From positions 5,454 to 69,453 of the IMG/VR virus record IMGVR_UViG_3300034093_000288: a DNA stretch of 64,000 bases. One strand, written 5' to 3'. A program made the position numbers and the translations under genes. This DNA is from a virus. A model generated the notes under the pieces. The model was not told the origin of the DNA and did no database searches. It saw only the letters and a list, made by a program, of their open reading frames with translations. Below, piece after piece: positions 1,570 through 45,575 of the stretch. Positions within the stretch are counted from its first letter, which is position 1. Each line of letters starts with the position of its first letter.

Positions 1570-1585
1570 GTGTCTTCAAAGACAC
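1570..1585 (-). repeat. 16-bp near-palindrome copy 1 (inverted orientation)
   Basis: GTGTCTTCAAAGACAC on +, exact reverse complement of the other eight copies. Confidence 0.95.
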
Positions 1586-1711
1586 CTTCAATAAGGGGCT
1601 TGCGCCCGCTCTCCTATCTCCTCATCTAAGAATCCCCAAAATTTCACCCGTTCCTGTATCCCTTATGCAGTAAGGCTTGTGGAGCAACACAAAACTTTTT
1701 TCACATTTCTC

Positions 1712-1748
1712 TTGGATATGTCAAAAGAATTGTAGTAAATTTGTAATC
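1712..1748 (+). promoter_or_regulatory. early promoter P1 (TTG -33, TAAATTTG -7)
   Basis: AATTGTAGTAAATTTGTAATC; shares the 21-mer AATTGTAnTAnnTTTGTAATC with P2 and P3. Confidence 0.8.
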
Positions 1749-1939
1749 GAAATCAACGGGATAGGCAACCCGCTAACAGGTCACTCCCACCTCGAGGGTA
1801 TTAATATCGGGACTGCGAGCCAAAGCAGGTGAGGGACGGCTAACGAGTTTAAAGACTCTGAGCTTACGAAATCGAAAAGATGGCTTACACTACGAGTGGA
1901 ATAGGGTCGACCAATGACAGCGACCTAGAGTATACGACA

Positions 1940-1984
1940 GCGCGACGGGCAGACCCCGATGTTCGAGTCATCGGCGCGCACTAA
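1940..1984 (+). ncRNA. mini tRNA-like element A
   Basis: GCGCG-11 nt-CCGATG-TTCGAGT-CATCGG-CGCGC-ACTAA. Confidence 0.7.
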
Positions 1985-2009
1985 CCAATAACCCCTTAAA
2001 TTTTATCTT

Positions 2010-2657
2010 ATGTCTAATTTACTTTCAATCGAGCAAGCATTCTTGAGCAATGCAGAAATTCAACAAGCCCTCAACATGACTGAGGTAACCCGCTTACAGC
2101 GCTCTATCGATACAGCGCAAAAGAAGAAGTTCAACACCACCTTAGAGTTGAGCAAGGTCGTAAGCAAATCATACGAATGGTTCAAATCAGACGAGGCACA
2201 AGCCAAGTTCACAGCCGAGGGTATCTCATGGACCTCGGAAGACTTTGCGCTCAAGGTCTTCGGATGGCAAAAATCGTTCTTTCACAAGGTCATCAAGGTG
2301 AGCAAGGTCGATACCGAGGTAGTCGAGCGCTTTGATGCTGAGTGCAAGCGCCTAGAGCGCGAGGGTGAGAAGCCTAAGCGCTCAATCGAGGCCCTACTCA
2401 AGTTCGCAAAGGCTGTGGAAGCTAGCGCCAAGAGCGGTGGAGACGGCGAGGGAGACGGCGAGGGCGATGAGCCACAGGTTGAGACACGTCCACAAACGGC
2501 GTTCACCTTGACGTTCAAGGACGGCCACAATCCAAACGTTAGCATCCGCATCGATGAGAACGGGGTGATGACCACAACTAACGCGGCCATTGACATCAAG
2601 CGAGCGCTTGCGTTCTTGGTGTGCAATGAGCAGTACATCGAGTTACTAAATGCATAG
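2010..2657 (+). CDS. first early protein, hypothetical (215 aa)
   Basis: Long ORF after AT-rich leader; GDGEGDGEG linker; no family recognised. Confidence 0.85.
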   Translation: MSNLLSIEQAFLSNAEIQQALNMTEVTRLQRSIDTAQKKKFNTTLELSKVVSKSYEWFKSDEAQAKFTAEGISWTSEDFALKVFGWQKSFFHKVIKVSKVDTEVVERFDAECKRLEREGEKPKRSIEALLKFAKAVEASAKSGGDGEGDGEGDEPQVETRPQTAFTLTFKDGHNPNVSIRIDENGVMTTTNAAIDIKRALAFLVCNEQYIELLNA

Positions 2658-2672
2658 TGTCTTTGAAGACAC
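2657..2672 (+). repeat. 16-bp near-palindrome copy 2
   Basis: GTGTCTTTGAAGACAC overlapping the TAG stop of 2010..2657. Confidence 0.95.
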
Positions 2673-2677
2673 CGCAA

Positions 2678-2723
2678 GCGGGAATGGTTCAAGCGGGGGT
2701 TCGACTCCCCCGCCCGCAACTAA
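2678..2723 (+). ncRNA. mini tRNA-like element B
   Basis: GCGGG-11 nt-CGGGGG-TTCGACT-CCCCCG-CCCGC-AACTAA. Confidence 0.7.
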
Positions 2724-2760
2724 TCAATAACTTTAATTCAAACCCTTTAATTTTTACACC

Positions 2761-3651
2761 ATGAGTAATTTAACTTTCAATCAGAACGGCGTTAACTTTG
2801 GATTAACTAACGACCAAGAGCGCGGAGAAATCCACAGCTACCACTACAAGCCTAGCCCGCTATTCTTGAACAAGACCAAGGGACGCGCTGATGTGGCGGG
2901 CCTAAGCCCTAAGCGCTTGAGTCAAAACGTCCGCGTCTTTATGGGCGACGTTGAGAGCCGCTTCACCATTGGCTTTGAGGTTGAGAAGAACAGCCTACAC
3001 CGCAACTCAGTACGTGAGTACGAATTGTTTTGTGGATTCGAGCGCGACGGGTCATGTGGATACGAGGCCGTAACACACGTGTTGCCGCTAGTGCCCGCAT
3101 CTAAGTGGCGCACTAAGGTGTACGACATGATGCACAAGGCCGAGAAGATTATCGATGACCAATACAGCCCATCAGACCGCCGCTGTGGTGGACACATCAC
3201 GATAGCTGTTAATGGCATGGAAGGCGACCAAGTTCGCGAGGCCGTTCGCAAGTTCAGCGGGTTGATGTACGCAATGTTCCGCCACCGCTTGACTAATCAG
3301 TACTGCGAGTACAACAAGCGCATGGAGCAGTTTGATGACTGCCGCCACCACCGCAAGTACCAAGTTGCCTTGGTCAAGGGCAACACCTTGGAGTTCCGCT
3401 TGCCGTCACGTGTGGAGTCGGTCAAGCAGTTGATGCGCCGCTATGAGTTGATGTACGAAATGGTAGATGTGGCAGTCAATCGCCCCAACACTAGCTTCAA
3501 GGCATGGGTCAACAAGATGACCCCGCTATTGGTAACGATGTACGACGGCGATGCCGACAGGGTCGAGGCTATCAAGGCTTTGGCTGTTCACTTCCAAACG
3601 TACATCAATACGGGTGTGAAAAACCAAGCTATTGTAAGCTTTGTAGGATAG
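2761..3651 (+). CDS. putative amidoligase (COOH-NH2 ligase, glutamine-synthetase-like fold)
   Basis: Motifs GFEVE, DGS..GYE, CGGHI and TLEFR, typical of phage amidoligases. Confidence 0.8.
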   Translation: MSNLTFNQNGVNFGLTNDQERGEIHSYHYKPSPLFLNKTKGRADVAGLSPKRLSQNVRVFMGDVESRFTIGFEVEKNSLHRNSVREYELFCGFERDGSCGYEAVTHVLPLVPASKWRTKVYDMMHKAEKIIDDQYSPSDRRCGGHITIAVNGMEGDQVREAVRKFSGLMYAMFRHRLTNQYCEYNKRMEQFDDCRHHRKYQVALVKGNTLEFRLPSRVESVKQLMRRYELMYEMVDVAVNRPNTSFKAWVNKMTPLLVTMYDGDADRVEAIKALAVHFQTYINTGVKNQAIVSFVG

Positions 3652-3696
3652 GGTACATGGTGACACGAGGGGGTTCGACTCCCCCTCTACCCACAA
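3651..3696 (+). ncRNA. mini tRNA-like element C
   Basis: GGGTA-11 nt-GAGGGGG-TTCGACT-CCCCCTC-TACCC-ACAA. Confidence 0.7.
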
Positions 3697-3698
3697 TG

Positions 3699-3714
3699 GT
3701 GTCTTTGAAGACAC
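3699..3714 (+). repeat. 16-bp near-palindrome copy 3
   Basis: Exact copy, intergenic, just after element C. Confidence 0.95.
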
Positions 3715-3741
3715 TATATTGTTTAACTTAAATTTAATAAC

Positions 3742-3984
3742 ATGACAAGAGCAGATGTAATTGTAAAGATGTTCCAAGCGCCCGTTCGTAATTGGATAAT
3801 TGATAACGTGCTAAAACTAAAGCATCCAAAGTGGCTTGAACATGAGCAAGATGACTTTGGTACACGTAACGGGGTCGTGAAGGCTTATCAAGTATTGGAC
3901 GAGTCCTTTTGTTGGGCAGACACTAAGGAGGGCCATGACTTTTGGAGGGATATATGTCACAAACTAGAAAGAAAAAACATATGA
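3742..3984 (+). CDS. hypothetical protein with W..TKEGH.FW motif
   Basis: ORF; C-terminus paralogous to the next gene. Confidence 0.75.
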   Translation: MTRADVIVKMFQAPVRNWIIDNVLKLKHPKWLEHEQDDFGTRNGVVKAYQVLDESFCWADTKEGHDFWRDICHKLERKNI

Positions 3985-4247
3985 TAAGCAGAGCAACACT
4001 ATTCGACATGAAGCTACCCTACCCGCTAGGCGAGATAGCTAAGTGTGCGTTCGTACATTCACACTACGAGATGGGCTACAGCCCCGAGCGCATATACGAG
4101 ATGCTACATGAAGATGACTTCGAGGCACACCTTTCAATCCCAATGTGGTACATTATAATCGCTCATATTGAGTGGGCATCCACCAAGGAGGGTCACGCAT
4201 TTTGGCAAAACATACACGATAAACTAAAACAAATAGAAGAACAATGA
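3981..4247 (+). CDS. hypothetical protein with W..TKEGH.FW motif
   Basis: ATGA overlap with the upstream stop (start moved from 3942); shared C-terminal motif. Confidence 0.75.
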   Translation: MISRATLFDMKLPYPLGEIAKCAFVHSHYEMGYSPERIYEMLHEDDFEAHLSIPMWYIIIAHIEWASTKEGHAFWQNIHDKLKQIEEQ

Positions 4248-4699: not shown

Positions 4700-4727
4700 T
4701 AGTGAGCGAAAATAATCCCATAAACAT

Positions 4728-4763
4728 TTTGCATTGTAAATAAATTGTAATACCTTTGTAATC
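4728..4763 (+). promoter_or_regulatory. early promoter P2 (TTTG -33, TACCTTTG -7)
   Basis: AATTGTAATACCTTTGTAATC, 19-nt spacer. Confidence 0.8.
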
Positions 4764-4778
4764 CAATAACACAAGAAC

Positions 4779-4961
4779 ATGAGAACAGCAGTTAAATTAT
4801 CAGTAATCTACGGCGCTATATGCGCTTCAGTCGCATTGGCAATGACGTCATGCGCTAGTCAAAAACAATACGTTAGATGCGATGCGTACAAGACGCACTA
4901 TAAGCCCCTCAAGGCTGAGAAGCACCATGGTCACCACATCAAATGCGACGCTTATAACTAG
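4779..4961 (+). CDS. small putative lipoprotein
   Basis: Hydrophobic N-terminus with lipobox-like MTSC; CDAY occurs twice. Confidence 0.6.
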   Translation: MRTAVKLSVIYGAICASVALAMTSCASQKQYVRCDAYKTHYKPLKAEKHHGHHIKCDAYN

Positions 4962-4964
4962 GCC

Positions 4965-5282
4965 ATGAGAGTAGACTTCGCAGTACTAGACAGCTTGGTT
5001 CAAAGGGAGTTTGAGCCACAGCAGACGATGGATGTCTTAGCGAATGAGCCCATGGTAGTGATGTCATGGGGCGCTCGAAAGTTCGCTCAGTACAAGAACA
5101 AGGCGCTCTTCTTTAGAGTGAGTGGCCGCTTGCACAGGGGCATTGTGTGCATCACCCTAGCTTGGGATGACACCTACACAATCACATTGCTCAACTTAAA
5201 GTTCGAGGTAAATCAAACGCGAACGGACGTATACTTCGACGAGTTGGTCAACAACATCGACCACATGGTCGAGACAAGGTAG
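4965..5282 (+). CDS. hypothetical phage protein (105 aa)
   Basis: ORF with SWG...F.VSG..H.G.V.I.L...DTY...DVYFDEL pattern. Confidence 0.8.
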   Translation: MRVDFAVLDSLVQREFEPQQTMDVLANEPMVVMSWGARKFAQYKNKALFFRVSGRLHRGIVCITLAWDDTYTITLLNLKFEVNQTRTDVYFDELVNNIDHMVETR

Positions 5283-5297
5283 TGTCTTTGAAGACAC
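5282..5297 (+). repeat. 16-bp near-palindrome copy 4
   Basis: Exact copy overlapping the TAG stop of 4965..5282. Confidence 0.95.
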
Positions 5298-6119: not shown

Positions 6120-7169
6120 ATGTGCGTAATAATTGTAAAGAACAACAACAAGAAAATCAACACCAATGTGCTCAGCACAGCAAGTAAAATCAACCCCGAC
6201 GGGCTTGGCATCGTATGGCTTGACACCTACGAGGTAAGCCATCACAAATCAACTGAGTGGCTTAAGCTTAACACCGAGCGCCCATTCATTGCTCACTTCC
6301 GCTATGCTACCGTCGGTAAGGTCGGCCTAAGCAATACGCATCCATTCCAATGCGGCGCTCAGTCGGATGAGTGGCTGATGATGAACGGAACTATTGCGGG
6401 TCTAGGTACGTATCGTGACTGCGACAGCAAGGTCCTTGCTCGTCAGCTAGGTAACGTTAGCAGAGAGACGTGGAAGGCTGAGTTATCTAAGCACGACTCA
6501 CGCTTTGTGACGTTCAACACCCGCACTAGGTCTTATCAAATCTACAATCGTGAGGCTTGGGTACAGCAAGACGGGGTGTGGTACTCCAAGGGTAACGTAC
6601 TACAGCAGACACCCGTCGCTGTGTACGGCACGCTCAAGAAGAACAACTCTAACTATTGGCATTACCTCTCCGACTCTCAGTACGTAGGGTCGGGAGAGAC
6701 TGCCGACAAGTACCCGCTATTGGTCAAGGGCTTACCCTATTTGATTGACCACAAGGGTGTGGGCTACAACGTGGACGTAGATGTGTTCAACGTAAGTGAC
6801 GACACGCTACGTGCATTGGATAGACTCGAGGGTCACCCAAGGTGGTATCAGCGCAAGCTACGCGACATACGCGTCGGTAAGCAGATGATTAAGTGTTGGG
6901 TGTACTTCATGGAGGGCATGGAGGTAGAGTCTACTGATAAGATACATAAGTCTTATAAGCAGAACTACCGCTACGAGCCTATGGAGCCTACACGTGTGGA
7001 GGACGAAGAAGACCTACATTGCATTAACTGCCTAAATGTGGTGGAGTACGACAACCTAGACGTGTTCTACTGCAAGAGCTGTGGCGCGTGGTGGGAAGAG
7101 AAGGACCTTATGGACTTTAATGGTGTCTTTGAAGACACTAAGATTGATAACGATAATTTACCATTCTAA
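6120..7169 (+). CDS. class II glutamine amidotransferase fused to gamma-glutamylcyclotransferase (AIG2-like) and Zn ribbon
   Basis: N-terminal MC, NPDG.G, HFRYATVG, NTHPF, NGTI; then VYGTLK and LDRLEG; CxxC..CxxC near the C-terminus. Confidence 0.88.
   Translation: MCVIIVKNNNKKINTNVLSTASKINPDGLGIVWLDTYEVSHHKSTEWLKLNTERPFIAHFRYATVGKVGLSNTHPFQCGAQSDEWLMMNGTIAGLGTYRDCDSKVLARQLGNVSRETWKAELSKHDSRFVTFNTRTRSYQIYNREAWVQQDGVWYSKGNVLQQTPVAVYGTLKKNNSNYWHYLSDSQYVGSGETADKYPLLVKGLPYLIDHKGVGYNVDVDVFNVSDDTLRALDRLEGHPRWYQRKLRDIRVGKQMIKCWVYFMEGMEVESTDKIHKSYKQNYRYEPMEPTRVEDEEDLHCINCLNVVEYDNLDVFYCKSCGAWWEEKDLMDFNGVFEDTKIDNDNLPF
7123..7138 (+). repeat. 16-bp near-palindrome copy 5 (in CDS, reads VFEDT)
   Basis: Exact copy. 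Confidence 0.95.
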
Positions 7170-7413: not shown

Positions 7414-7794
7414 ATGAGAAAAACACAACTAACAGACGTCATTCACTACGAGAAGATGTCGCAGAAGCCTAACGCACTACTAATACAAACGCTACAGCAA
7501 ACCCTTGACGGGCTACGTGAGTTTGACTTCAAGGACTTTATTGGAACGGGTAGGTTTATACCTATCGACACACTACCTAACGAGTACAAGATATTTATCA
7601 GTAAGGACACAGCATCCATTGTTGTCTACGTTGGAAATTACTTCATTCCATGCGACGCAGACGGATACTTCTTTATCACCATAGATAACCGAAGTGAGGC
7701 TGATGAGCACCTTGAAGTATTCAAGAGTAAGAAACTAATTGACGTTGAACATAAGCTATGGGACACATACGCACATGAATCATTTAAGCGATGA
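7414..7794 (+). CDS. hypothetical protein
   Basis: ORF directly after P3. Confidence 0.75.
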   Translation: MRKTQLTDVIHYEKMSQKPNALLIQTLQQTLDGLREFDFKDFIGTGRFIPIDTLPNEYKIFISKDTASIVVYVGNYFIPCDADGYFFITIDNRSEADEHLEVFKSKKLIDVEHKLWDTYAHESFKR

Positions 7795-8093
7795 AGAAGA
7801 GCGTATTCACTCAGTATGTAGACATCGTATCAAGGATGTTTGCAATGACACCTGGGCAGATGTTCGAGAACACCAAGCGCCGTTCGGTAACCGAGGCGCG
7901 TCAGTTGTTCATCTTCCTATGCATCAGACGTCAAATCCCCATGTGTAACATTATGGATTGGTCGCTAGTATACGGACGTAAGTTCACGTACTCATCAATC
8001 ATCAATGCTGTTCGCTACATGGAGCGTAAGATGGCAGACGATAGGGACTACATCCAAATAATAAAGAACATCGAATCCAAAGTAATCAATTAA
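7791..8093 (+). CDS. DnaA domain IV (C-terminal HTH)-like protein
   Basis: TKRRSVTEARQLFIFLC...YSSII resembles the DnaA-C pattern R.R.IV.ARQIAMYL...HSTVI. Confidence 0.6.
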   Translation: MKKSVFTQYVDIVSRMFAMTPGQMFENTKRRSVTEARQLFIFLCIRRQIPMCNIMDWSLVYGRKFTYSSIINAVRYMERKMADDRDYIQIIKNIESKVIN

Positions 8094-13194: not shown

Positions 13195-13532
13195 AAACAA
13201 AACAATTGATTCACCTAGCTATGATTAACTCATACAACGTGATTACGGGTAAGATAGATGAGCACATGGTAATGGAGACATCTATTCCTATGTTCGCTCA
13301 CGTACCTAATGAGGAGATAACTGAAAATAATTTCTCATCGATAATTAAGTACTTCGAGAACTTAGAGATGTATGAGGAGTGCGATCAACTCAAGAAGGAG
13401 TACGACCTACGCTTTGATTCTATGAAGAGAGCAAAGGATAGGATATGTGATTGCGAGTACCCAACGGTGCTCAGGTATAATTGGGAACAAACACGATGCG
13501 GGATATGCAAGAACTTATTGGAGAGGGTGTAG
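13191..13532 (+). CDS. hypothetical protein with C-terminal Cys cluster
   Basis: YFE..E.YEEC..L motif, CxC...CxxC. Confidence 0.7.
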   Translation: MKTKQLIHLAMINSYNVITGKIDEHMVMETSIPMFAHVPNEEITENNFSSIIKYFENLEMYEECDQLKKEYDLRFDSMKRAKDRICDCEYPTVLRYNWEQTRCGICKNLLERV

Positions 13533-14956
13533 TAGTCGAGAGGATACCCGGCTACTCAGACCAAATGATGTACGACAGATGCGAGAGAATGTATGCTGTC
13601 TGCAGCAAGGAGAAGGAGGTAGTTGTTGGCAGAGGTAAGGCGGCAGTAAGAAAGAAAGTGCTGCATTACCGAAACATCGAGCCCATCCTTGAGGCACTAG
13701 AAAGGAGTATGGAATTTTACAAGGACAAAATGAAATTTGAATTTAGAGATTACCAAGTAGAGATAATGAAAAAGGCAGAATCGATTTTAAGCGCTTCTCG
13801 CTTCGTTTATTTAGCAATGGAGGTAAGGACAGGCAAAACACTCACAAGTCTCGGCATATGCGAGCTATTGAAGCCTGTGAGGGTTCTATTCGTAACTAAG
13901 AAGAAGGCAATAACAACAATCCAAAGAGATTATGATTTGTTAAACCCTAACTACGCACTAGACGTTATCAATTACGAGAGCCTTCACACCATAGAGAGAT
14001 ATGGTTACGACGTCATTATATTAGACGAGGCACATGGAATGGGAGCCTTTCCTAAACCAAGTAACCGAGCTAAGATTGTAGCCGAGTTTATTGCCGCCAA
14101 TAGACCATACGTCATCTTACTTTCAGGTACACCAACACCCGAGTCGTACTCGCAGATGTACCATCAGGTGTACTCAATTCCAAAGAACCCATTCAACAAG
14201 TACGCGAACTTCTACAAGTTTGCAGGTGACCACGTTGATGTAAAGGAGAGAACAATCAACAGCCTACGCATCCGCGACTACTCGCATGGTAAGGACTCCA
14301 TCTTAGAAGCCATGTCGCCGTACATGATTAGCTACACGCAGAAGGCAGCAGGCTTTGAGTCATCGGTTGAGGAAGAGGTACTGTATGTGGAGATGGAAGC
14401 AAAGACATACGACCTCATCAAGAGACTTAAGAAGGACTTGGTCATCGAGGGGAAGAGCGAGCTCATCCTTGGAGACACACCCGTCAAGCTTATGCAGAAG
14501 ATACATCAGTTGTGTAGCGGAACGATTAAGTTCGAGAGCGGAAGCAGTATGATAGTGGACCTATCTAAGGCTAAGTTTATCAAGGAGAAGTTTTCCGGTA
14601 AAAAAATTGGAATCTTCTACAAGTTCAAGGAGGAACTCAATGCGCTCAAGGAGGTGTTCGGTGATGAGCTGACCACGGAGCTGAGTGTCTTTGAAGACAC
14701 CGACAAGAACATAGCCTTGCAGATTGTATCAGGACGTGAGGGAATCAGCCTACGCCACGCAGACTACTTGGTCTACTACAACATAGACTTTAGCGCCACT
14801 AGCTATTGGCAGTCTCGTGATAGGATGACCACTAAGGATAGAGCCTTCAATAAAATATATTGGGTGTTTGCCAAGGGTGGTATCGAGAAGGAGATATATA
14901 AGGCGGTAAGTAACAAAAAAGATTTTACAGTTAGTCACTTTAAGAAGTTGTTATGA
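13481..14956 (+). CDS. SF2 (SNF2-like) helicase
   Basis: RDYQ, RTGKT, ILDEAH, LSGTP, GREGISL, QSRDR; true start may be 13506 or 13730. Confidence 0.88.
   Translation: MGTNTMRDMQELIGEGVVVERIPGYSDQMMYDRCERMYAVCSKEKEVVVGRGKAAVRKKVLHYRNIEPILEALERSMEFYKDKMKFEFRDYQVEIMKKAESILSASRFVYLAMEVRTGKTLTSLGICELLKPVRVLFVTKKKAITTIQRDYDLLNPNYALDVINYESLHTIERYGYDVIILDEAHGMGAFPKPSNRAKIVAEFIAANRPYVILLSGTPTPESYSQMYHQVYSIPKNPFNKYANFYKFAGDHVDVKERTINSLRIRDYSHGKDSILEAMSPYMISYTQKAAGFESSVEEEVLYVEMEAKTYDLIKRLKKDLVIEGKSELILGDTPVKLMQKIHQLCSGTIKFESGSSMIVDLSKAKFIKEKFSGKKIGIFYKFKEELNALKEVFGDELTTELSVFEDTDKNIALQIVSGREGISLRHADYLVYYNIDFSATSYWQSRDRMTTKDRAFNKIYWVFAKGGIEKEIYKAVSNKKDFTVSHFKKLL
14685..14700 (+). repeat. 16-bp near-palindrome copy 6 (inside helicase)
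   Basis: Exact copy, reads VFEDT. Confidence 0.95.
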
Positions 14957-15201
14957 CCGAGCAGCAGATACAGGCCAAGAAGATTAAGGAGCTTGAGGAG
15001 AACGGGTACTACGTCATCAAGTTGGTAAAGACCAATAAGAACGGAATACCAGACCTCATCGCTATACCTAAGGACTCTGACGTGCTGTTCGTAGAGGTTA
15101 AGACTGACGTCGGAAGACTCAGCAAGCTGCAAGAGTACAGGATAAAAGAATTAAGTAATCACGGAATTAAAACAGAAATACAAAAGGGATGGAAAAAGTA
15201 G
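14953..15201 (+). CDS. VRR-NUC domain nuclease
   Basis: E..IQ, GIPDL, FVEVK, GRLSKLQ. Confidence 0.88.
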   Translation: MTEQQIQAKKIKELEENGYYVIKLVKTNKNGIPDLIAIPKDSDVLFVEVKTDVGRLSKLQEYRIKELSNHGIKTEIQKGWKK

Positions 15202-15716
15202 AGACAACATTTGAAATTACAAAGACAGTAGAGTTTGTTAATGACTTCTTTGGAGTTGACATATCATCTAGGTCTCGCAAGAGAGAGATTGTAGAAGCAC
15301 GAATGATGTACGCTAAGCTAATGAAGCGCTACACCAAGCACTCACTAAGCGCGATTGGTGCGCCAATTGGCAGAGACCACTCTATGATTATTCATTACAC
15401 CAAGAACTTTGCTTGGCTTAAGAAGAGCGAACCTGAGTTCGCGCGTAAGTTCGATACGCTTAACGATATGTACGAAGAGTTTAGAGCGGTGTGGTTTAGC
15501 GAGGAAAGGTTTGATGATAAGAGTAAAATTGTATTCTTACAAAATGCATTGAATGCTGAACAGGAAAAGGTAGAGAGATACGAGAAGTACTTAAGTAAAA
15601 TCCAGCGCCTTGACTCAATCATCCAACTCATAGAGCAGAGGACGCCTAAGGGTGAGGAGGATTACGCAGAACAAAAAATAAATAGAATGTTTAACTCAAT
15701 AATTTTTAACACATGA
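15189..15716 (+). CDS. DnaA domain IV-like HTH protein with coiled-coil tail
   Basis: SRKREIVEARMMY...SLSAIG..IGRDHSMIIH. Confidence 0.75.
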   Translation: MEKVETTFEITKTVEFVNDFFGVDISSRSRKREIVEARMMYAKLMKRYTKHSLSAIGAPIGRDHSMIIHYTKNFAWLKKSEPEFARKFDTLNDMYEEFRAVWFSEERFDDKSKIVFLQNALNAEQEKVERYEKYLSKIQRLDSIIQLIEQRTPKGEEDYAEQKINRMFNSIIFNT

Positions 15717-22600: not shown

Positions 22601-25600
22601 ATCAGCAAGCTGTATCCCAAGAGGTCTGTTTCCATTTCTATATGCGCGAGTTCTTTCATTCTCAAGCTCAGCCATTCTTCTATTCGCAAGATTTTTCTCA
22701 CGTTTAATCTCTGCATCAACCTCAGCAATAAACTCTTCTTTAACTTGCTTTGCAGTTTTCTTTTTCTTTGCAGGTGCAGGTTGTGCAGCAGGTGCTGCAG
22801 CCGTTTGAGTAGGTGTAGTAGCGGCTTGTGTCGGTGTCTTTGAAGACACTCCTCTACCTCTTCTTGATGGTGGCGGAGGCACAACTACCTCTTCTACCTC
22901 AGCCTCAACTTCAGGAGCTACCTCCTCTTCAAATGCAAATCCTTCCTCAGCTAAGATGGTCTCGAACTCATCAAGCTCTTGTTGAACCTCAGGCGCAATC
23001 TCCTCTACCTCTTCAACTACAGGGGCTTGTTGTACATCAGTTTGTACAGTTTCTTTTGTTTGTTTAGTAGGAGTTGGTTTTTGTTTTATTATTGATTTAT
23101 CAAGTACTACATAGCTAATATCATTATCGCCAAAGAAAGAATCAATTAATTTAATTCCACTATATCCTTTCTCTTTTGCTTTCTTTAAAAGAAAATCTTG
23201 TTCTTTTCCGCTAGTAAATGTAGAGCTCTCAGCTCTTTGTCTATATTTTTCAATTAGTTTTTCTTCGGTTAATCTACCTAAAGCATCTCTACTTAATTCA
23301 GAATTTATTTCCTTTTTATATAACTGTTTTATGTCTTCATCTGAAAAATTATTTTTTGCAAACTCACTTTTATTTTCTTGAGTTGTTAAATCTAAAAATT
23401 TAGAAGTGTCAAAATTTGCTTCAGTTACATTAGATTTTTCTCCGCCATATTGTTCTGCAATATTAGGGTTCTTAGAAAAAAATATAAACTCTCCTTTTGT
23501 GGCTGTTAAATCATCAAATTTTTTACCTCTACCTGTATAAAATTTTTCTTCCTCAACTATTTCTTCTTGCTCGACTGCTTGGCCACCTTCTTCGGTAACT
23601 TGCTCAGTTGTTGTTTCGGGTGTTCTTTCCGCCATTTCTCCGCTAACTCCGGTTTCTGGCTGTACAGGAACTTCACTTGTTGTTTGCTCTTGAACGGCAT
23701 TTTCTTCTCCTATTTGTTCTAAACGACTATTAATCTCGGCAATGCGCGCTTTCTGAGGCTTGACGAGGCTCGGGTCTTTCCCTTCTACTTCTCTCTCTAT
23801 TCCATCTCGCTCAATCATTAACTCTAACGATTCTGCTTTTGCTTCAGATGTTAGGTTGTTAGGCATTGAGCGAACTTTACCTTGAATTTTATTGAATGAC
23901 TCAACAATAGAATTAGCCTCTTCCTTTGACATTTTACCTGTAAGCAAATCTGCTTTTAGGCTATTTACTAAAGCTGAGTTAATTCCCTCTATCTTGGTAG
24001 CATTAATTAATGCTTCTAACTCTTCTTGTTTGTATACGGCATTTAAACCTACTTTAAGCGCTTGTGGTGACGATTGAGCAATTGACATTACTCCACCACC
24101 GATAGCTCCTAAGTAACCTTCGTATGCGGCATTTGATAGCGCTTCCTGAAGTCCTTTATTTTTTGAGAAGTCTTTCTCTCTATACGTATCATAAACCTCT
24201 TCGATACCAACTTGAGAAAGTGATTGAGTAGCCTCTGTTAATGCTTCAGCTGCGGCGCCAATTCCTGCCTTAACGCCAATCTCTGAAAACACACTTCCAA
24301 CGCTTGCATTTATAGCAGTTCTAATCTCAGCTTCTGTTGCCTCCTTAGATAATCCAAGGAAAGCTCTCTTCATTATATTGTTTGTTAGGTTTCTACCAAA
24401 TGCTGTTTTTGTTAGTGCCATGTCGACACCAAAGTTCTCAAGTACAGATGATAGGATACCATATCCTGCAGATAGCAATACCTTATCAGTTTCAGGTATC
24501 TTTTCTATTTCACCTGTTTCTTTATTTTTAAACTGAGCGTTATCTAATTGGTCCTTCATCTCGTAATAAGACATACCATAGAAACCTGCATATCTTGCTG
24601 CAGTGCCTAATCCTACAAGAGCTCCTGAAGATGCCATTACACCTAATGATTCTGCCAAGCTAAACATAGCCTTTGAAAAGTCTCCTCGTTTTTCTGACTC
24701 AACGTATTGAGTTGATGTGTCACCACCTGTAATAGCCTTAACCAATTCGTCTTGGTCTTCCTTGGACATATCTCCAAAGCTAAGTAGTCTAGGAATAGAT
24801 GTAGCACCCTCAACAAACTTATATGCCATACCGCCACCAAATGAACCTCTTGATTCCTCAATGATGTAGTTCATGCCAATTGACTTATCAATTGCTCTTG
24901 ATGCAGTGGATACGGATTTTAAATCAGCGGCTACTTTTTTGGCGTCTGCAGCCAATGATGCGTTAGACTCTTCAACAATGGCATCGTACTCCTCCATTGT
25001 CATTTCACCTGTTTTAACTTTTTCAGCTAAGGTGTTTATTCTAGCCTGCTCTTCTTTTTGTTTTTTATCTAAATCAGCAGCTGACTTTTGTACATTGTTA
25101 TAGAAGTCACCAACTATCTTGATGTCTCTATCGTCTCTACGAATAGATGCGTATGCTTGCTTAGGGTCAATTGACTTATCAATACGAACCATCTCGTACA
25201 CATCCTTAAACTGCTCAGCTTTTGCTTTAACATACTCACCCTCTGCCTTTTTAAGCGGGGCCTGGTATTTTTGTGATATTGCCTGTTCTTCTTTTTTAGC
25301 AACAGGCGTTTGCTTTACCAATGCCATTGGGTCTTGAGGGGCTAATGGATTCTCTAAGAACTTTTGAGTTCTATCCATCAATCCTTCAGCAGCTAGTTTA
25401 TTTGTAGCCACATCAATCTCCTTATCGCGTTGAGACTTAATAGAATCAATTTTTTGAGACGCCTGAGCTACTTCTTTTTTTGAATTGGCTCGTATGAATG
25501 TTTTAAGACCTTCAGCTTCCTTCTTGTCATCATCCCAATTCCAATTGTCCAATTGAATTTCCATGGTAGCACCTGTTGGAGCTACTACACTTATTCGGTC

Positions 25601-38242: not shown

Positions 38243-38276
38243 TAAAAATAGGGGAGTGTCTTTGAAGACACCCCCC
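38243..38276 (-). terminator. capsid-gene terminator whose stem-loop contains palindrome copy 8 (38256-38271)
   Basis: GGGGGGTGTCT-TCAA-AGACACTCCCC-TATTTTT on -. Confidence 0.8.
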
Positions 38277-38297: not shown

Positions 38298-39719
38298 TTA
38301 TGCTCCGTAGCGGAAGATGAAGAAGTTGTTCGCACCAAGTGTACATACAGCACGCTCAGATAAGAAGTTAACTTCCATTGCATCGAGGTCGCTAGTAGCA
38401 GCACCACCGGCAGAACCTGTAATCCAAGTCTTGTAACGACGATTTTCAGCTTCAGTAGCACGGTAACGAACGTGTAAGAACGGACGCTTAGCGTTTTTAC
38501 CAAGAACTTGGTCGTATACAGTTGTTGAACCTGCAGGAACAAGCATACCTGTAACAGTACCTGTAGCAGTAGCACCTGTAGGAAGACCACCACGCATTGT
38601 TGGATCGTTAAGGTATTTCCAATCTGACTTGTAGAAATCGTAAGAACCACGACGGAAACCTGTGAAACCAAGGTTCAAAGCCATATCCTTATCGTTATCA
38701 AACAAACCGTAAGATGTACCATTAGCACCATAGCTGTTTTGTGAAGCAAGGATATCATCGATGCTCAAGCTGAATGCACGGTTAACGAACAATACGTTTT
38801 CTTCGATAGCACCTTGCTTGTCTAAACGTTGAAGGATGTTATCAAAGTCAGTCATTGCGGTAGGGATACCACCACCAAAGACGTTACCACGAGTATTAAC
38901 TGCGTAGAATACACCTTCAGAACCTTTGTAACCAAGACCTACAGCACCTGAATTTGTTGCAGCAGGAACTGCTTCAATCATAGATGTTTCGAGGTAGTCA
39001 TCAAAACGGAGACGAGTTTCGTGCTCAGACTTCAAGTACCAAAGGTAACCTGATGCACCGTTCTCAGTAGTTACTTCTACCCAACCGATTTGAGCCATGT
39101 CAGAACCGTTAACAGCATACTTATCTTTAAGGATAATTGGGCTGTTAGAGAAGAATAAGTCATCAGCTTCCAAAGAACCAACCATTCCGTTACTACCTTT
39201 TTTAAACTCAGAACCGTAAATGAAGATAGTTACAGTTGAGTTAATTGCAAAAGCTTGACCTGCAGTTTCGTAGTAAGAAACATTGATAATACCTGTAGTA
39301 GTATCTACTGCAGTTACGATAGCTTTGTTAGAAGCACCTGTAGCATTGTCAGAAACGTTGATAGTTTGTCCGGCACGGATAGCGATTGGCTTACCTGTAG
39401 CAGTAGGAACTAATACGTCGTTAACTGTAATTGTAGCGTTGTCTTGACCTTGTGCAGTGTTAGCGTTACAGTTAGTGTACTTAGTGTGTAGACGACCTTG
39501 TTCAGTCCACTTAATCATATCTGAGTTAGACGGCATCTCAGCACCTACCATTCGCAAGAATGAAGATACAGTACGGTTTCCGTAACGCTCAAATTCCTTC
39601 TCGTAAGTATCAGGAAGATACTGATTCAAGAAGTCAAAGTTAGTAATGTAGTTTGTTTGCAAAGCGACTTGTTGCGCATTTGGTTGCAAATCAAAACCGG
39701 GAGTTGGTAAAACTGGCAT
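38298..39719 (-). CDS. major capsid protein
   Basis: 473 aa, follows portal and scaffold, highly biased codons, strong terminator after it. Confidence 0.85.
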   Translation of the reverse strand: MPVLPTPGFDLQPNAQQVALQTNYITNFDFLNQYLPDTYEKEFERYGNRTVSSFLRMVGAEMPSNSDMIKWTEQGRLHTKYTNCNANTAQGQDNATITVNDVLVPTATGKPIAIRAGQTINVSDNATGASNKAIVTAVDTTTGIINVSYYETAGQAFAINSTVTIFIYGSEFKKGSNGMVGSLEADDLFFSNSPIILKDKYAVNGSDMAQIGWVEVTTENGASGYLWYLKSEHETRLRFDDYLETSMIEAVPAATNSGAVGLGYKGSEGVFYAVNTRGNVFGGGIPTAMTDFDNILQRLDKQGAIEENVLFVNRAFSLSIDDILASQNSYGANGTSYGLFDNDKDMALNLGFTGFRRGSYDFYKSDWKYLNDPTMRGGLPTGATATGTVTGMLVPAGSTTVYDQVLGKNAKRPFLHVRYRATEAENRRYKTWITGSAGGAATSDLDAMEVNFLSERAVCTLGANNFFIFRYGA

Positions 39720-40890: not shown

Positions 40891-43326
40891 CTATCTAGGC
40901 TCAAACTCAGCTAAGTCAAACCCATCCAAGCTATCCTCGTTTGACTCAAAGTCAACAGGAGGTAGATTGTTCTTTCTTTGCTCAATTAATTTAGACTGCT
41001 GAGTGTTTTGAATAGAGATACGCTTATCCTTAGCCTTCTCCTTTTCGTCCTCTCTCTGCTTCAATGACTGAGTCTCCATGCCTCTTAGTTGCATCTGCAT
41101 ATCAAACTCCGTCTGCATTAACTGCTGCTTGAGTACGGCCTCGTTCTTCATCTTCTCAATCTCGAACGCAACCTCAGCTTGTTTTATCTGCATCTTTGCT
41201 TGAGATTCTGCTTGAATCTTAGCCATAGCAGCTTCAGCTGCCATTTGCTGTGATTGTAGGTTTTGCTGAGCAACCATAGCTTGCTGCTGCATCTGTAGTC
41301 GCTCCTCTCTATCCTGCTTCTTAATTCGCTTAACCTTAAGAAGCTGATTAGCCAATTTAATGTTTTTAATCTCGCGGATATCAATCGCATCCTCAAGGTT
41401 AATATCGCCTTTAGATAACGCGATTTGAATGTTCTGCTCGAGTTGTGCCTTTTCTTCTTCATCAGGTGAGATTTCAATAAAAATTCCAAAGTCATATATG
41501 TATAGGTCCTTAATCTCGTTAAGGATTGATACGTTGTACTTTCCAATTCTATTTGCAAAATCATCTTTGAAGTCAGCGTACTCAAGTATGTCAGCAACAC
41601 GATATGTTAATGCCTCTGCTAGTGATCGGAACATAAACAAGCTTGCCTCTAAGATGTGGCGTGTAGCTGTATTTGAGTTAAGCGCTGCTAGCTTTTGTAC
41701 ACCAACCAATGCTCTTGGGTCAGGCATAGAGCCATCACGTGCCTCGTTAAGTCCTGTTACCGAACGTAGCATCTCCATATAGTGGTTGTAGTTTGCAATT
41801 AGCGTTTGTAGTTTTGATGCGCCTGAGTTACCTGCAATAGCCTGAATAGGAACGCGTCCATTATTAAACTCACCATCTTGGGTGTAACTACGTCCGATTA
41901 CACTACCCGTTTGGAAGTATAGTCGGAGTGCATCCTCAGGATTGTAAGCAGCACCCGTACCAAGGTCAACCTCATTAAGACCATCAGCGTCAATGAAGAC
42001 ACCATCCGGAACTGTACGAGCAATAACCTGCTGCATCTTTAGGTGCGTAATCTGAATCAAGTCAGCGAATGGAATCATTCGTCGAACCAATGACTCAATA
42101 ACACCCTTGTACATACGAGGAGCAATTGCCACGTAATTTGGTATAGCGTGCTGTGAAGATGACTTAGGTCGAACCATGTTTTCAGACATCTCCCACTTAA
42201 GTAGGATGTTTGTACCCATGACCATAACGCCCTCATACCAAACATCGATTACCTTTTCAATCTTCTCAAAACGACCTTCTTCCATCATGTCCGCAGGCGG
42301 GTTGAATGTGTCGTCCTTCTCTACAACGCGAACGCCTCCGTTGTCTAGGTACTTTTTCTTATAAACTACCTTTTTAGTGGTCTTGTAGTTAAAGTACAAT
42401 AGCGTACACGTATCACGTGCAAAGATGTCATCTTGGTAGTACTGAGCTACGTTGTAGTAGTCATACCAACTCTGACTGTATTTTGATATCTCTTCCAAAT
42501 CCTCACGAGTGAGTGATTGGTCAATCTTTAATAGCTCTGTAATAGGGAGTGTCTTAATTTCTCCCCAGTAGAAACAATCTCTAAAGTACGGGTCTTCAGT
42601 ATAGCTATAGACCACGTTAGCCGGATCTACGTATGAAACCTGTACGCCTGCTCCCGGTAAAAACTCGTGCTTAGTAACAGCGATACCTAATACGGTAAGG
42701 TCATAGTCAAGGCGCTTACGCAAGTCTAGGTATTTATTTTCTTCTAATATAGTATTTATAGCCTCCTCCTCTGCAATCTCAATTGCAGGTTTGTAGTTGA
42801 GCTGCATATACAATGATAGTTCCTCATCACTTTCAGGAAGTTCCTCAGAATCCATTACAAACGGGTCAAACCCTGACTTCTCCTTAATCTTCATTAATGG
42901 AGCTTTTGCAATCATCTGCCCCTCAAGGATATCTTGGAACTTACTTCTTTTTGCTTGAGACATTGCATCCTGTGCATATGCCTTAACCTTAAACATACGG
43001 TCAGACATACCGTTTACAACGATGTCAACAAACTTAGGCAGGATTGGAACGGGTGTCCAATCAAGGTTCAAGTATGATAGGTCGCCATCAATAGCAAGTT
43101 CATTCTTGTACTTGGCAACAGACTGCTCACCACGGGCGTATAACCTTAAACGATGAAAGTCTCTCCATTGACCATAATATCTACAACTATTTCCATCTTT
43201 ACGAAACCACTCGTATTGGATAGCTTGCCCTATTTGGATTCCAAATTCTGCAGTGTTCTTTTCTGCGTCAGTAACAAATTGACTCGGAAATGCAGCTGAG
43301 GGTACGTTTACTTTTACTTCTTTCAT
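40891..43326 (-). CDS. portal protein
   Basis: 811 aa next to terminase; PILPKFVDIVV, TG.NEARDG, Gln-rich coiled C-terminus. Confidence 0.85.
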   Translation of the reverse strand: MKEVKVNVPSAAFPSQFVTDAEKNTAEFGIQIGQAIQYEWFRKDGNSCRYYGQWRDFHRLRLYARGEQSVAKYKNELAIDGDLSYLNLDWTPVPILPKFVDIVVNGMSDRMFKVKAYAQDAMSQAKRSKFQDILEGQMIAKAPLMKIKEKSGFDPFVMDSEELPESDEELSLYMQLNYKPAIEIAEEEAINTILEENKYLDLRKRLDYDLTVLGIAVTKHEFLPGAGVQVSYVDPANVVYSYTEDPYFRDCFYWGEIKTLPITELLKIDQSLTREDLEEISKYSQSWYDYYNVAQYYQDDIFARDTCTLLYFNYKTTKKVVYKKKYLDNGGVRVVEKDDTFNPPADMMEEGRFEKIEKVIDVWYEGVMVMGTNILLKWEMSENMVRPKSSSQHAIPNYVAIAPRMYKGVIESLVRRMIPFADLIQITHLKMQQVIARTVPDGVFIDADGLNEVDLGTGAAYNPEDALRLYFQTGSVIGRSYTQDGEFNNGRVPIQAIAGNSGASKLQTLIANYNHYMEMLRSVTGLNEARDGSMPDPRALVGVQKLAALNSNTATRHILEASLFMFRSLAEALTYRVADILEYADFKDDFANRIGKYNVSILNEIKDLYIYDFGIFIEISPDEEEKAQLEQNIQIALSKGDINLEDAIDIREIKNIKLANQLLKVKRIKKQDREERLQMQQQAMVAQQNLQSQQMAAEAAMAKIQAESQAKMQIKQAEVAFEIEKMKNEAVLKQQLMQTEFDMQMQLRGMETQSLKQREDEKEKAKDKRISIQNTQQSKLIEQRKNNLPPVDFESNEDSLDGFDLAEFEPR

Positions 43327-45575
43327 TTAATAAGTTGACTTATATTCCCATCATTACTATATCTTGCAAATTTAAGAGATATTTTTGATTCTTTTTTCTC
43401 CGGTACATATAAGTGCTTCTGATTAGCCATAATAGCCAATCCTGAGCTGATAGAGGCATCGAATTTGGTTCGGTCACTAATATCAAACCTAGCCCAATCA
43501 CTAAGCGTTCTAGTGAACGGCATTGAGCCCATTTCATCCGGCTGACGATACACCCCTGCTGAATCTAATCCCACGTACTTTTCGATGTAGCTTTCGATAG
43601 CTGATGCGTGCGACTGCTTGACATCCTCAGAGGAGTTTGGTATACCACCTAGCTCGCGCTCTGTTGGCGTAAGCTTGCTGTAGTGTTTGTCAGGTCTGTT
43701 AATAGAGAACGGTCTGTACCCACGATTCTTAAAGTGGTATAGCAAACGTGGTTTGTTGTTCTCAATTAGAATTGGCATACCATAAAATATACAGGCCATT
43801 AGAACTTCCTCAAAGAATATCTCTGCCGTTTGTGGACGCGCGATGTACTCTAAAAAGAACTCGTTTGTAGGGCCCTCATCCATGTGGAACTTAGTCATTC
43901 CGTGCAAGGAGCCGTTAGAACCTCTACCACCGACTACTGCCGATATGTCATACGGGTCACATCCAAATACCCCCATGTGCTCATTGGCGGGGTACTTTAA
44001 TCCGTTTTTCTCTATTACCCTGTTCTGTAAGTGCGCAGGAGGAACCCACGACAACAAGAATCTACCATTTTTGTCAGGTGAGAATACAACCTTGCTATCC
44101 TTGATACCATCTCTCCAATGGAACGAGCCACGTGTTAGATAGTGCTCTGATATTAATGCGTCGTTGTAGTCAATCTGCTGATATATTTTTGTGAGGTTAA
44201 ATAGTGATGACTTGCTCTCATCACGGAACGCGTGCGACTCTGTTCTTGGGAACTGACGATAGAACTCGTTCAATGCGTCGGCATCATTTTTAAGTGAGTC
44301 AACCTCTGCCTCCCAATAGTCGATAGCGCCATTTGTAATCCACTGACCATCAACCCCTCTAATTTTTTCAATAGGCTTTCTAAATACAGGCATACCGTAG
44401 ATGTCAATGAACCCCTCCATGTTCCACTCCATAGGAATGAATAGGCCATATAGCCCCGACTTAGTCTGACCATTGGCGTTACGTGTATTTACACGTGAGT
44501 CCTCATAAAGTCTTTTGTAGTTCTCACCACCCTTACTAAGCGCGTTGGACGTAGAGCCCATCATACACTTACCAATAATCTTAGAACCCAAACGTAAACA
44601 CGTTTTAGTTACACGCCAATTGTTTAGGATGTTGTTCGGCTTAAGCCATTTGGCAGATTCGTCATGAGCCAAGAACAATAACTTCTCACCATCGTAAGAG
44701 TTCTCCTCTGTATTTTTCCAGTCAATGGTAGTGTCGAGACCTGTAATCTCGTTGTCATCCACATCGTGCATATTCTTCTTTGTAATCTTAGCCGCAGGAA
44801 CTCGGTAGGCAAGCTCAGTCTTCGGCTTATCCATACCATCCATTACAGGCTTGAAGAAGAAGGGTAGGTTACTGTTAATAGGCACAACCTTATCTGTAAA
44901 CATCTTCTTGGCATCCGCACCCGTCTTAGATAGCATACCAACCCTCGCATCTCTTGCAAGAGTTCCTATGTTGACGCACTCAGATGATGACATAAATGAG
45001 AACCCGGAACGGCGTATCTTTAGGTACACCATACCAAAGCATCTAGGGTCTGCCTTACAGGCCTCCCAAAATATAAAGAAGATTCGGTTAGCTTCACGAT
45101 AGTCGGGGTATCCGATGTCAATCTTAGACCACTGCAAATACATATAGTGTGATCCCGTTATGTAGGTAGGAGTACCTCCGTTCATAAACCAACACCCCTG
45201 CTCCCTTCGGTCAAACTCCTCCTCAATGTAATCTACCCATCGGTTCTTAAACTCAGCGGGCATATCATTCCATTGGAAGATAGATTGAATACGAGTTAAC
45301 TCCTTTGGGATATCCATTCTCTCCCAATACTGCTCAGATGACTTAGAGTGTCTTTGAAGACACTTTTGCGGCACAGCAGGTAGGGCAACCCTAAGACCCT
45401 GTATGTCTACTATGTCTCCAATCTGACCCGTCTTAGATATGACAATGATGTCATAGTCCTCGTTGTATCCATAAGTCCAAGACCTATCATTGTTCTTTCG
45501 AGTGTAAGCCGCCTTCGGCATTACATTCTTAACTACCTTATATAGACTACTTCCCTCCTGCACGACGTTCGGCAA
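43323..45575 (-). CDS. terminase large subunit
   Basis: LKIRRSGFS (Walker A variant), LAHDE, GST, nuclease-domain GCDPYD and IENNK. Confidence 0.88.
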   Translation of the reverse strand: MPNVVQEGSSLYKVVKNVMPKAAYTRKNNDRSWTYGYNEDYDIIVISKTGQIGDIVDIQGLRVALPAVPQKCLQRHSKSSEQYWERMDIPKELTRIQSIFQWNDMPAEFKNRWVDYIEEEFDRREQGCWFMNGGTPTYITGSHYMYLQWSKIDIGYPDYREANRIFFIFWEACKADPRCFGMVYLKIRRSGFSFMSSSECVNIGTLARDARVGMLSKTGADAKKMFTDKVVPINSNLPFFFKPVMDGMDKPKTELAYRVPAAKITKKNMHDVDDNEITGLDTTIDWKNTEENSYDGEKLLFLAHDESAKWLKPNNILNNWRVTKTCLRLGSKIIGKCMMGSTSNALSKGGENYKRLYEDSRVNTRNANGQTKSGLYGLFIPMEWNMEGFIDIYGMPVFRKPIEKIRGVDGQWITNGAIDYWEAEVDSLKNDADALNEFYRQFPRTESHAFRDESKSSLFNLTKIYQQIDYNDALISEHYLTRGSFHWRDGIKDSKVVFSPDKNGRFLLSWVPPAHLQNRVIEKNGLKYPANEHMGVFGCDPYDISAVVGGRGSNGSLHGMTKFHMDEGPTNEFFLEYIARPQTAEIFFEEVLMACIFYGMPILIENNKPRLLYHFKNRGYRPFSINRPDKHYSKLTPTERELGGIPNSSEDVKQSHASAIESYIEKYVGLDSAGVYRQPDEMGSMPFTRTLSDWARFDISDRTKFDASISSGLAIMANQKHLYVPEKKESKISLKFARYSNDGNISQLIK
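45348..45363 (+). repeat. 16-bp near-palindrome copy 9 (inside terminase, reads CLQRH on -)
   Basis: Exact copy in a third reading frame. Confidence 0.95.

Follow-up and report, generated by a model that had tools for sequence, protein, structure and literature searches.

Several short elements are known that recur around a phage or plasmid genome. The inverted repeats of the Streptomyces phage phiC31 and the 17-bp palindromes of Cluster O mycobacteriophages are conserved over 16-17 bp, occur 10-30 times per genome and lie mostly near gene starts, and the promoter-early stem-loop (PeSL) cassettes of T4-type phages are repeated short elements that flank variable early genes. KorB of the IncP plasmid RK2, a member of the ParB family, is described in PMC11790492 as a dimeric helix-turn-helix (HTH) protein that recognises a short palindromic operator, OB, and acts as a global regulator. 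The stoperators of the temperate Cluster A mycobacteriophages are, according to PMC6550527 and PMC9283540, asymmetric 13-bp sites bound by the immunity repressor as a monomer and placed mostly in one orientation to transcription. Herein, we analysed a 16-bp near-palindrome, GTGTCTTTGAAGACAC, that is repeated in a phage of lake water, together with p215, a 215-aa candidate site-binding protein encoded by open reading frame (ORF) 2010..2657 on the + strand, the first gene of a rightward early operon. The window, that is, the whole stretch of 64,000 nucleotides (nt) analysed, comprises bases 5454-69453 of the 69,453-bp virus record IMGVR_UViG_3300034093_000288, which is rated complete. Neither the 16-mer nor its 14-mer core was found, on either strand, in the literature searched, and a preprint on the crAss-like phage phi14:2, which describes early transcripts without a common motif, gave no help on the palindrome.

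The window holds nine exact copies of the 16-mer, eight on the + strand and one, at 1570, on the - strand, as the sequence-only reading had reported. The number expected by shuffling was 0.03, and nine copies were reached in 0 of 100 shuffles. No further site appeared in the window when up to 2 mismatches were permitted, and the remaining 5,453 bases of the record contain no copy. Five of the nine sites are intergenic, although 96% of the window is ORF (P ~1e-5). Site 1 (1570..1585, -) lies some 440 nt ahead of the p215 start, in the 590 bp of non-coding DNA between two divergent genes. Site 2 (2657..2672, +) overlaps the p215 stop codon by 1 nt and site 4 (5282..5297, +) overlaps the stop of ORF 4965..5282 by 1 nt, and a tRNA-like minihelix follows each of them. 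Site 3 (3699..3714, +) is intergenic, with the next ATG 27 nt on, and site 8 (38256..38271, +), also intergenic, is the central part of a hairpin that resembles a terminator and follows the structural gene 38298..39719. The four sites within genes are likewise on the + strand, and the peptides that had been read from them were recovered: VFEDT at site 5 (7123..7138), within the 3' end of ORF 6120..7169, which encodes a class-II glutamine amidotransferase fused to a gamma-glutamyl cyclotransferase (GATase/GGACT); VFEDT again at site 6 (14685..14700), within the SNF2-type helicase gene 13481..14956; VSSKT at site 7 (22834..22849), within a low-complexity linker of a 3228-aa protein encoded on the - strand; and CLQRH at site 9 (45348..45363), about 70 residues from the N-terminus of the large terminase subunit TerL, whose gene (43323..45575) is on the - strand. 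A purine before and a pyrimidine after the motif, which had been taken as an extension of the site, accompany 8/9 copies in the study phage, but this flank pattern does not hold across the phage family. The 8:1 strand bias is real in the study phage and is weak when taken alone (two-sided binomial ~0.04 by our own arithmetic).

These copies are not an assembly artefact, because the sites are found in lake metagenome assemblies made independently and because related IMG/VR phages also have the 16-mer, in 10-12 exact copies each. The study-phage stretch is present in many lake-water metagenome runs of different studies, and contigs of the independent run X9 span 2657, 3699, 5282 and 7123 with 0 differences. 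RNA-labelled metagenome runs contained only small shares of the stretch, and the one examined is probably DNA from a relative. When related phage genomes were scanned, a check that had been suggested beforehand, 10-12 exact copies, plus a few one-mismatch variants, were present in each of 5/5 complete or nearly complete relatives (96-100% by CheckV). At least 120 IMG/VR stretches carry the exact 16-mer, and 117/120 of the matches listed are homologous to the study phage by shared proteins. By sequence comparison, this distribution shows that the palindrome is specific to one family of freshwater Bacteroidota podophage-like viruses of ~60-70 kb.

The positions of the sites are also partly shared. 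Late-region sites recur at the helicase, the giant gene, the post-capsid terminator and TerL, at intervals of ~7-8 kb and 15-25 kb, in 6/6 genomes. Upstream of p215, a site recurs in five relatives, 180-270 nt ahead of the gene; G001, G002 and G003 have a site or a 1-mismatch variant 3-4 nt past the p215 stop, and in G002 and G003 the counterpart of site 7123 lies 11-12 nt past the GATase/GGACT gene. Among 410 unique family sites, 155 have an ORF start at most 45 nt downstream, with a mode of 15-22 nt.

The family consensus is GTGTCTT-YR-AAGACAC, with TG, CA, TA or CG found as the centre. Both orientations are mixed within relatives. Downstream of p215, on the early coding strand, the centres number CA 238, TG 40, TA 28 and CG 6 (sites that are not phylogenetically independent), and most relatives therefore point opposite to the study phage. 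In its closest contigs, L234 and L286, the orthologue of site 1570 has the opposite centre and that of site 3699 has a TA centre, while G009 contains three CG, one TA and three TG/CA sites, plus one arm-mismatch variant. MW202828.1, an uncultured phage without the study motif, carries instead a perfect palindrome, GTGTCGTTAACGACAC, whose 14 copies all lie in its early region (43745-55169; L148, L149); seven of them lie 3 nt past a stop codon and 16-39 nt ahead of the next ATG, and its late genes hold no sites. A third site class, GTCTCTTYRAAGAGAC, is present in 5-6 copies in L310 (8915-14964) and L311 (8885-17994). The earlier suggestion that polarity follows the genome is contradicted by the mixed orientations, by the centres that flip between orthologues and by the perfect symmetry in MW202828.1. 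Judged from these variants, the centre amounts to no more than a pyrimidine-purine step, and the two halves of the site are functionally equivalent. Our guess is that uniform orientation within one early region arises from shared descent and drift through symmetric TA/CG intermediates.

The sites within genes allow selection on DNA to be separated from selection on protein. A TerL sample was drawn without reference to the motif and contained 80 loci, of which 72 have the QYWER anchor. The exact site was found in 43/72 anchored loci, equivalent to 36/64 unique sequences, and in 36/36 unique CLQRH sequences the codons are identical (TGT CTT CAA AGA CAC). The codons of the conserved Pro, Glu, Gln and Arg residues beside CLQRH differ synonymously among TerL sequences. 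The other 28 unique sequences carry 18 different pentapeptides at the same position, for example CYKRS, VFKRS and CHQRH. Given the frozen codons and the 18 alternative pentapeptides, the TerL site occupies a tolerant position of the protein at which the residues are dictated by the DNA. At the helicase site, 6 motif-bearing genomes have identical codons and 4 alignment rows without the motif have other residues. The site in the giant gene is in frame 0 in 6/6 genomes (4 VSSKT, 2 VSLKT), and it lies in a diverged low-complexity linker whose flanks are unrelated among genomes and in which the orientation of the centre is variable. The alignments of helicase and TerL homologues, a check suggested beforehand, place the site at variable, tolerant positions and bear out the sequence-only reading in ascribing the selection to DNA, and the giant-protein linker agrees. 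Selection in TerL, the helicase and the giant gene is, on this codon evidence, strong and directed at the DNA rather than at the encoded protein. The palindrome is very probably a protein-recognition site under DNA-level selection, with binding predicted.

Candidates for the binding protein were compared by their presence in relatives with and without the motif. G007 is a complete relative with a TerL 79% identical to that of the study phage, and it contains no GTGTC-N6-GACAC and no other repeated palindrome; the intergenic gaps of its early genes are just 3-24 nt. The Flavobacterium phage elemoF is also without the site. ORF 2010..2657, encoding p215, is the only study-phage ORF that is present in 7/7 palindrome-bearing genomes yet absent from G007 and elemoF, and p215 is absent from 5/5 motif-less records, 1 of them complete. 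A search of IMG/VR with the p215 alignment yielded 78 loci, and palindromes of this kind were present at 78/78; GTGTC-N6-GACAC sites were present at 76/78 (among them 313 TTYRAA-type sites centred on TG or CA, besides variants of the centre and CCT variants), while the two most divergent homologues (L310 and L311, 31% identity) accompany GTCTCTTYRAAGAGAC instead. These comparisons of gene content show the palindrome to be an accessory trait that occurs together with p215. Three candidates had been named for a dedicated binder: 2010..2657 fits, whereas the DnaA_C-like HTH candidates 7791..8093 and 15189..15716 fit less well because both are present in motif-less G007. A part in DNA entry, packaging or shielding, which the sequence-only reading had also put forward, is no more than a guess.

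The p215 family is large, with 482 homologues in a word-indexed search and 319 representative clusters in an exhaustive search. The layout of the protein comprises an N-terminal helical dimer interface (predicted), an HTH-like region with FGWQKSFFHK, a disordered, acidic linker of Gly/Glu and, at the C-terminus, a small beta/alpha domain. The FGWQKS..K helix holds 5 of the 22 invariant columns of a 48-sequence alignment, and it changes along with the site. Its counterpart is YGLSKAQGHK in MW202828 (GTGTCGT arms) and ICISKAHFYR in L310 and L311 (GTCTCTT arms), and in L287 and L294 (mostly GTGTCCT arms) the helix is altered at Gln, to FGW[K/G]KS. The AlphaFold2 (AF2) model of p215 has a predicted local distance difference test score (pLDDT) of 84.8, and the domain model 93.2; residues 1-60 form helices of the predicted dimer interface. 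The homodimer model scores 0.70, compared with 0.00 for the best of 3 controls, a score reached by 20/30 solved homodimers and 1/23 single chains in the benchmark. The dimer runs agree in at least 91% of contacts, with pLDDT of at least 80. p215 is therefore predicted to be homodimeric.

In fold comparison with VIA-align, p215 gave Z scores of only 4-5.6 overall. The matches included the KorB-operator structure 1r71 (Z 5.3, rmsd [root-mean-square deviation] 3.4, 97 aligned), KorB 8qa8 (Z 4.9 and 4.4), Spo0J 1vz0 (Z 5.1), VirB-DNA 3vwb (Z 4.7) and P1 ParB-DNA 1zx4 (Z 4.3). The first 60 residues of the domain model match many HTH domains at Z 4-5, among them sigma region 4, DeoR, Fis and AraC. 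The recurrence of DNA-bound ParB-family domains among these model-based matches is a hint and does not imply family membership. No ParB/Srx-type N-terminal CTP-binding domain was found in the 48 p215 family members (Pfam, E <=1), and the comparison of p215 with PHROGs found no family. Among neighbours by ESM features, which provide a lead only, DUF3102 clusters accounted for 24/30 matches (score 0.93, 149 shared features), and a Borrelia partition protein cluster was matched with a score of 0.90. A scan of 185,579 species genomes with two peptide patterns only gave 135 pattern matches to p215, none of which was confirmed.

We propose that a homodimeric DNA-binding protein of the phage recognises the 16-mer in double-stranded form, and the most likely candidate for it would be p215. 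It would bind as a symmetric dimer, with one HTH per 7-bp arm, and would act as a global, autoregulated regulator of the early operon, blocking or tuning early transcription by roadblock or operator binding. Through the late-gene sites this control would reach further, or the bound protein would fulfil an additional role across the genome. The proposal of a global regulator is made because many sites stand between early genes, after stops and often 15-22 nt before an ATG, and because sites occur upstream of p215 and at its stop. From its distribution and co-variation, p215 is probably the binder of the palindrome; that the outcome of binding is transcriptional control is put forward more tentatively, as somewhat less probable than not. 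On the sequence data, the statement as a whole, that the palindromes could be operator-like sites for p215 acting as a global early regulator, is one that we hold evenly balanced.

Compared with the systems described above, a genome-wide operator set with a cognate regulator is of a known kind; the unnamed protein family and the encroachment on essential coding sequence are unusual. By analogy, the p215 system would work most like KorB with its palindromic operators and would also resemble the stoperator repressors, but it lacks features that define each of them. The likeness to KorB/OB lies in a short palindrome repeated around a replicon of ~60 kb, with the dimer and the binding of p215 being predicted, and in the fold comparison structures of the KorB DNA-binding domain stand among the top matches to p215, all of them weak. 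Unlike KorB, p215 has no detected ParB/Srx CTP-binding domain, nor has it sequence similarity to KorB. Pfam scanning covered 47 of the larger ORFs inside the window, and no integrase, ParA, partition gene or RNA polymerase was detected among them; neither a ParA nor a KorA partner was found there. RK2 is a plasmid replicon, whereas the study phage is apparently lytic and has sites written into coding sequence. Stoperators share with the palindrome many near-identical short sites genome-wide, often in short intergenic gaps inside operons, and a site motif that drifts along with its cognate protein, as the palindrome classes do with p215. However, stoperators are asymmetric and oriented, whereas the study palindrome spans 16 bp around a pyrimidine-purine (Y-R) centre and its orientation is not conserved; the stoperator binder is a monomer, whereas p215 is a predicted dimer, and the scanned ORFs of the study phage include neither integrase nor partition gene. 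The repeats of phiC31 and Cluster O are essentially intergenic, whereas 4/9 copies in the study phage lie within genes, with the site dictating protein sequence, and the candidate binder p215 belongs to a family without a Pfam model. The PeSL cassettes resemble the study sites in that the latter flank variable early genes and may coincide with mosaic junctions, but the study sites have no attached promoter, are also present in conserved late genes and co-vary with a protein.

Several results weigh against the proposal that p215 regulates early genes through the palindrome. L253 and L307 have mostly CCT half-sites, yet their helix is unchanged, and about three lineages account for the helix-site co-variation, two of them being the homologues that diverge most overall. 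All p215 fold matches have Z <6, which is within chance for helical models according to the tool, and unrelated helical proteins score alike. Foldseek with the p215 models returned nothing at E <=0.001, the p215 profile had no match among PDB sequences, and Pfam scans of the 48 p215 members and 10 distant representatives found nothing. The co-occurrence may be mere linkage, since p215 is invariably encoded in the early module, where most of the sites are, and only two complete motif-less relatives were compared. The late-gene sites are dispensable to the system, because MW202828 is without them. Binding by a symmetric dimer gives no reason for the strong bias of orientation in the early region (CA 238 vs TG 40). 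No conserved promoter element or other conserved flank was found beside the family sites, and the regulatory outcome is therefore a guess. Moreover, flank complementarity at offsets 2-6 is above the control (0.35-0.42 vs 0.26-0.29), and because of this and of the terminator core at site 8, some copies also act as hairpins.

The mosaic structure around the sites was noted separately. Nucleotide similarity of the study phage to L234 and L286 stops exactly at 3714, the last base of site 3. In co-occurring strains, contigs break off at 2656 and 2723, and from 8516 onwards one contig departs into site-bearing sequence. Most of the genes that lie between sites 3699, 5282 and 7123 were found in the study phage alone. 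The sites may coincide with mosaic junctions.

Four other explanations were considered. The nearest to our proposal keeps p215 and its sites and replaces the transcriptional role with that of a CTPase-less ParB-like organiser that marks, bridges or condenses phage DNA or shields it against host defences or rival phages, with late sites every 7-16 kb; we consider it unlikely, but worth serious attention. It would account for the late sites that recur at the same four places in 6/6 genomes and for the giant-gene site, kept in all six despite diverged flanks and a variable centre orientation, and it is favoured by the recurrence of ParB-family domains (KorB, Spo0J, VirB, P1 ParB, SopB, Noc) among the weak fold matches and by the ESM-feature match to the Borrelia partition protein cluster. 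Yet MW202828 has all 14 sites in the early region, p215 shows no ParB N-terminal domain, no ParA was found among the 47 ORFs, the fold matches are weak, and G007 manages without the whole system. An extended form of the idea, also unlikely and slightly harder to credit, holds that p215 and the palindromes would constitute a self-marking system of the phage chromosome rather than a gene switch. A CTPase-less ParB-like dimer would load at sites retained at intervals over the full length of the genome, which TerL, the helicase and the giant virion protein would be forced to encode, and in the infected cell it would organise, protect or discriminate its own DNA. Lake phages that co-infect would then fall into incompatibility or exclusion groups by their site/protein specificity class, of which there are at least three (TTYRAA, GTTAAC and GTCTC-type arms). 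The element might instead be a hairpin in RNA or single-stranded DNA that serves as an intercistronic stabiliser, as a processing site or as the core of a terminator, and an RNA-binding protein might read it. The hairpin at site 38256 (A-run, GGGG, site, CCCC, T-run) is strong (-22.6 kcal/mol, z -4.4, 0/200 shuffles as good), and a terminator-like hairpin also surrounds its counterpart in relatives; many sites lie 3 nt past a stop codon and 15-22 nt ahead of the next ATG, the flank complementarity is raised, and the tRNA-like minihelices 27-41 nt from three sites suggest RNA processing. However, the extended G/C pairing and T-run of an intrinsic terminator are found at 1/9 study-phage copies (38256) and at none of the other 8. 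Complementarity of the base adjoining the 16-mer falls below the control (0.26 vs 0.35), equivalent places show the site in both orientations relative to transcription, and half-changed sites on the early mRNA strand comprise 14 C/A mismatches, nearly as many as the 22 U.G wobbles. Pairing alone, moreover, would not leave all 16 bases frozen. Because of the low adjoining complementarity, the single T-run in nine copies, the two orientations and the near-equal counts of C/A mismatches and wobbles, we conclude that the primary constraint on the sequence is duplex recognition, with a minority of copies also acting as hairpins, and we regard a hairpin as the element's basic function as improbable.

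Selection of a different kind would apply if the sites were short identical linkers at gene boundaries for modular recombination, via Sak and the PDDEXK protein, among relatives that infect the same cell, maintained by selection for evolvability or by hitch-hiking as in a PeSL-like arrangement. The phage encodes SSAP_Sak and a PDDEXK protein, the genes between 3699, 5282 and 7123 are mostly its own, and contig similarity ends, breaks or diverges as described above. We nevertheless rate this explanation as very improbable: it gives no account of the frozen sites in TerL, the helicase and the giant gene, nor of the Y-R centre rule, the symmetric variants and the co-variation with p215; 16 bases are a very short homology, and the single clear junction is common to two related contigs. 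Lastly, localised nicks are known in T5 or phiKMV-type phages, and hairpin promoters for an injected RNA polymerase in N4. Sites of either kind, whether cut or nicked on one strand by a phage endonuclease or acting as hairpin promoters for such a polymerase, would agree with the one strand common to 8/9 study-phage sites and with the giant, probably injected, protein that the phage encodes. Such sites are hardly credible here, since orientation in relatives is mixed and freely evolving, perfectly symmetric variants exist and no RNA polymerase was found among the 47 ORFs scanned. The giant protein itself had no D-x-D-x-D motif, PDB sequence match or Pfam family in sequence searches only, and its candidacy as an RNA polymerase is unsupported.

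Three tRNA-like minihelices on the + strand (2675-2716, 3651-3697 and 5300-5346) each combine a GGTTCGAYTCC T-arm, an 11-13-nt bulge and, stacked on the T-arm, an acceptor-like stem of 4-5 bp, and G004 also has T-loops of this kind, at 31-40 nt from sites. The minihelices may signal processing of the early transcript by an RNase P/Z-type activity. They were rejected as tRNA genes: ARAGORN called 0 tRNA genes, and Rfam gave nothing at gathering scores, with just a chance miRNA match (E 0.84) in 1400-7500. In G007, a 247-nt non-coding stretch (16132-16378; L223) ends in a T-arm and acceptor-like sequence and may be a tRNA-like or tmRNA-like element.

Site 1570 is surrounded by a G+C-rich block (1420-1620) within the 590-bp non-coding region between divergent genes (1420-2009). 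The same region contains a candidate host-type -7 element at 1736-1743, followed by a leader of ~260 nt up to p215; the candidate host-type promoter at ~1736 ahead of p215 was called with the Bacteroidota -33/-7 consensus. The region could be an origin or encode a non-coding RNA. The sites were also considered as host promoters and rejected; that consensus gave 6 matches vs 2.4 expected, none of which overlaps a site.

The study phage is a podophage-like virus of freshwater Bacteroidota, with TerL, portal and structural proteins in the window. Its TerL relatives include the uncultured phage MW202828.1 (81%), the Flavobacterium elemo phages (46%) and Cellulophaga phages (38%); megablast of 12 kb of the study phage against GenBank phages gave no match. 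The rightward early/replication module encodes the Sak annealing protein (SSAP_Sak), the PDDEXK nuclease, a BT4734/DUF5906 primase-helicase, the SNF2 helicase and the two small DnaA_C-like HTH proteins. An amidoligase-like ORF (2761-3651, +; phrog_2443, E 9e-4) and the GATase/GGACT ORF (6120-7169, +; Pfam GGACT, 8e-23) form an early module kept in all palindrome-bearing relatives, with only distant versions in G007. Both were set aside as site binders: they co-occur with the motif, but have distant homologues in a motif-less genome. The 3228-aa giant protein (16646-26332, -) has a zinc-protease-like HEFGH (HExxH) near residue 1840 and long linkers rich in Thr/Pro/Glu/Gln/Ala, and its C-terminal third matches phrog_32588, to which no function is assigned there. 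The ORF at 28842-29711 (-) carries a crassvirus muzzle protein C-terminal domain (PF25729, 7e-14), which points to a tail module common to the study phage and crAss-like phages.

A scan of bacterial genomes with the 18-mer form matched 19 stretches, where ~17 are expected by chance by our own arithmetic, the exception being contigs of metagenome-assembled genomes (MAGs) of Cytophagales and Flavobacteriaceae. A phage-sized contig of 56,458 bp in a Cytophagales MAG (L314, L315, L324, L327, L330) has at least 7 copies, and a 32-kb contig of a Flavobacteriaceae MAG has 2. Both look like phage contigs and give a weak hint of a host among Bacteroidota.

If the proposal is correct, p215 would represent a new family of phage DNA-binding proteins, with 319 representative clusters and scanned members without a Pfam model, and its recognition code would be readable from the natural co-variation of the p215 helix and the 16-bp site. 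It would also mean that essential genes, those for terminase and helicase among them, can have their protein sequence overridden by a site that serves regulation or organisation, and the site-protein pairs would be usable as orthogonal operator-repressor parts for Bacteroidota genetics. The phages that carry the system are abundant uncultured viruses of freshwater Bacteroidota, in which gene control is almost unstudied.

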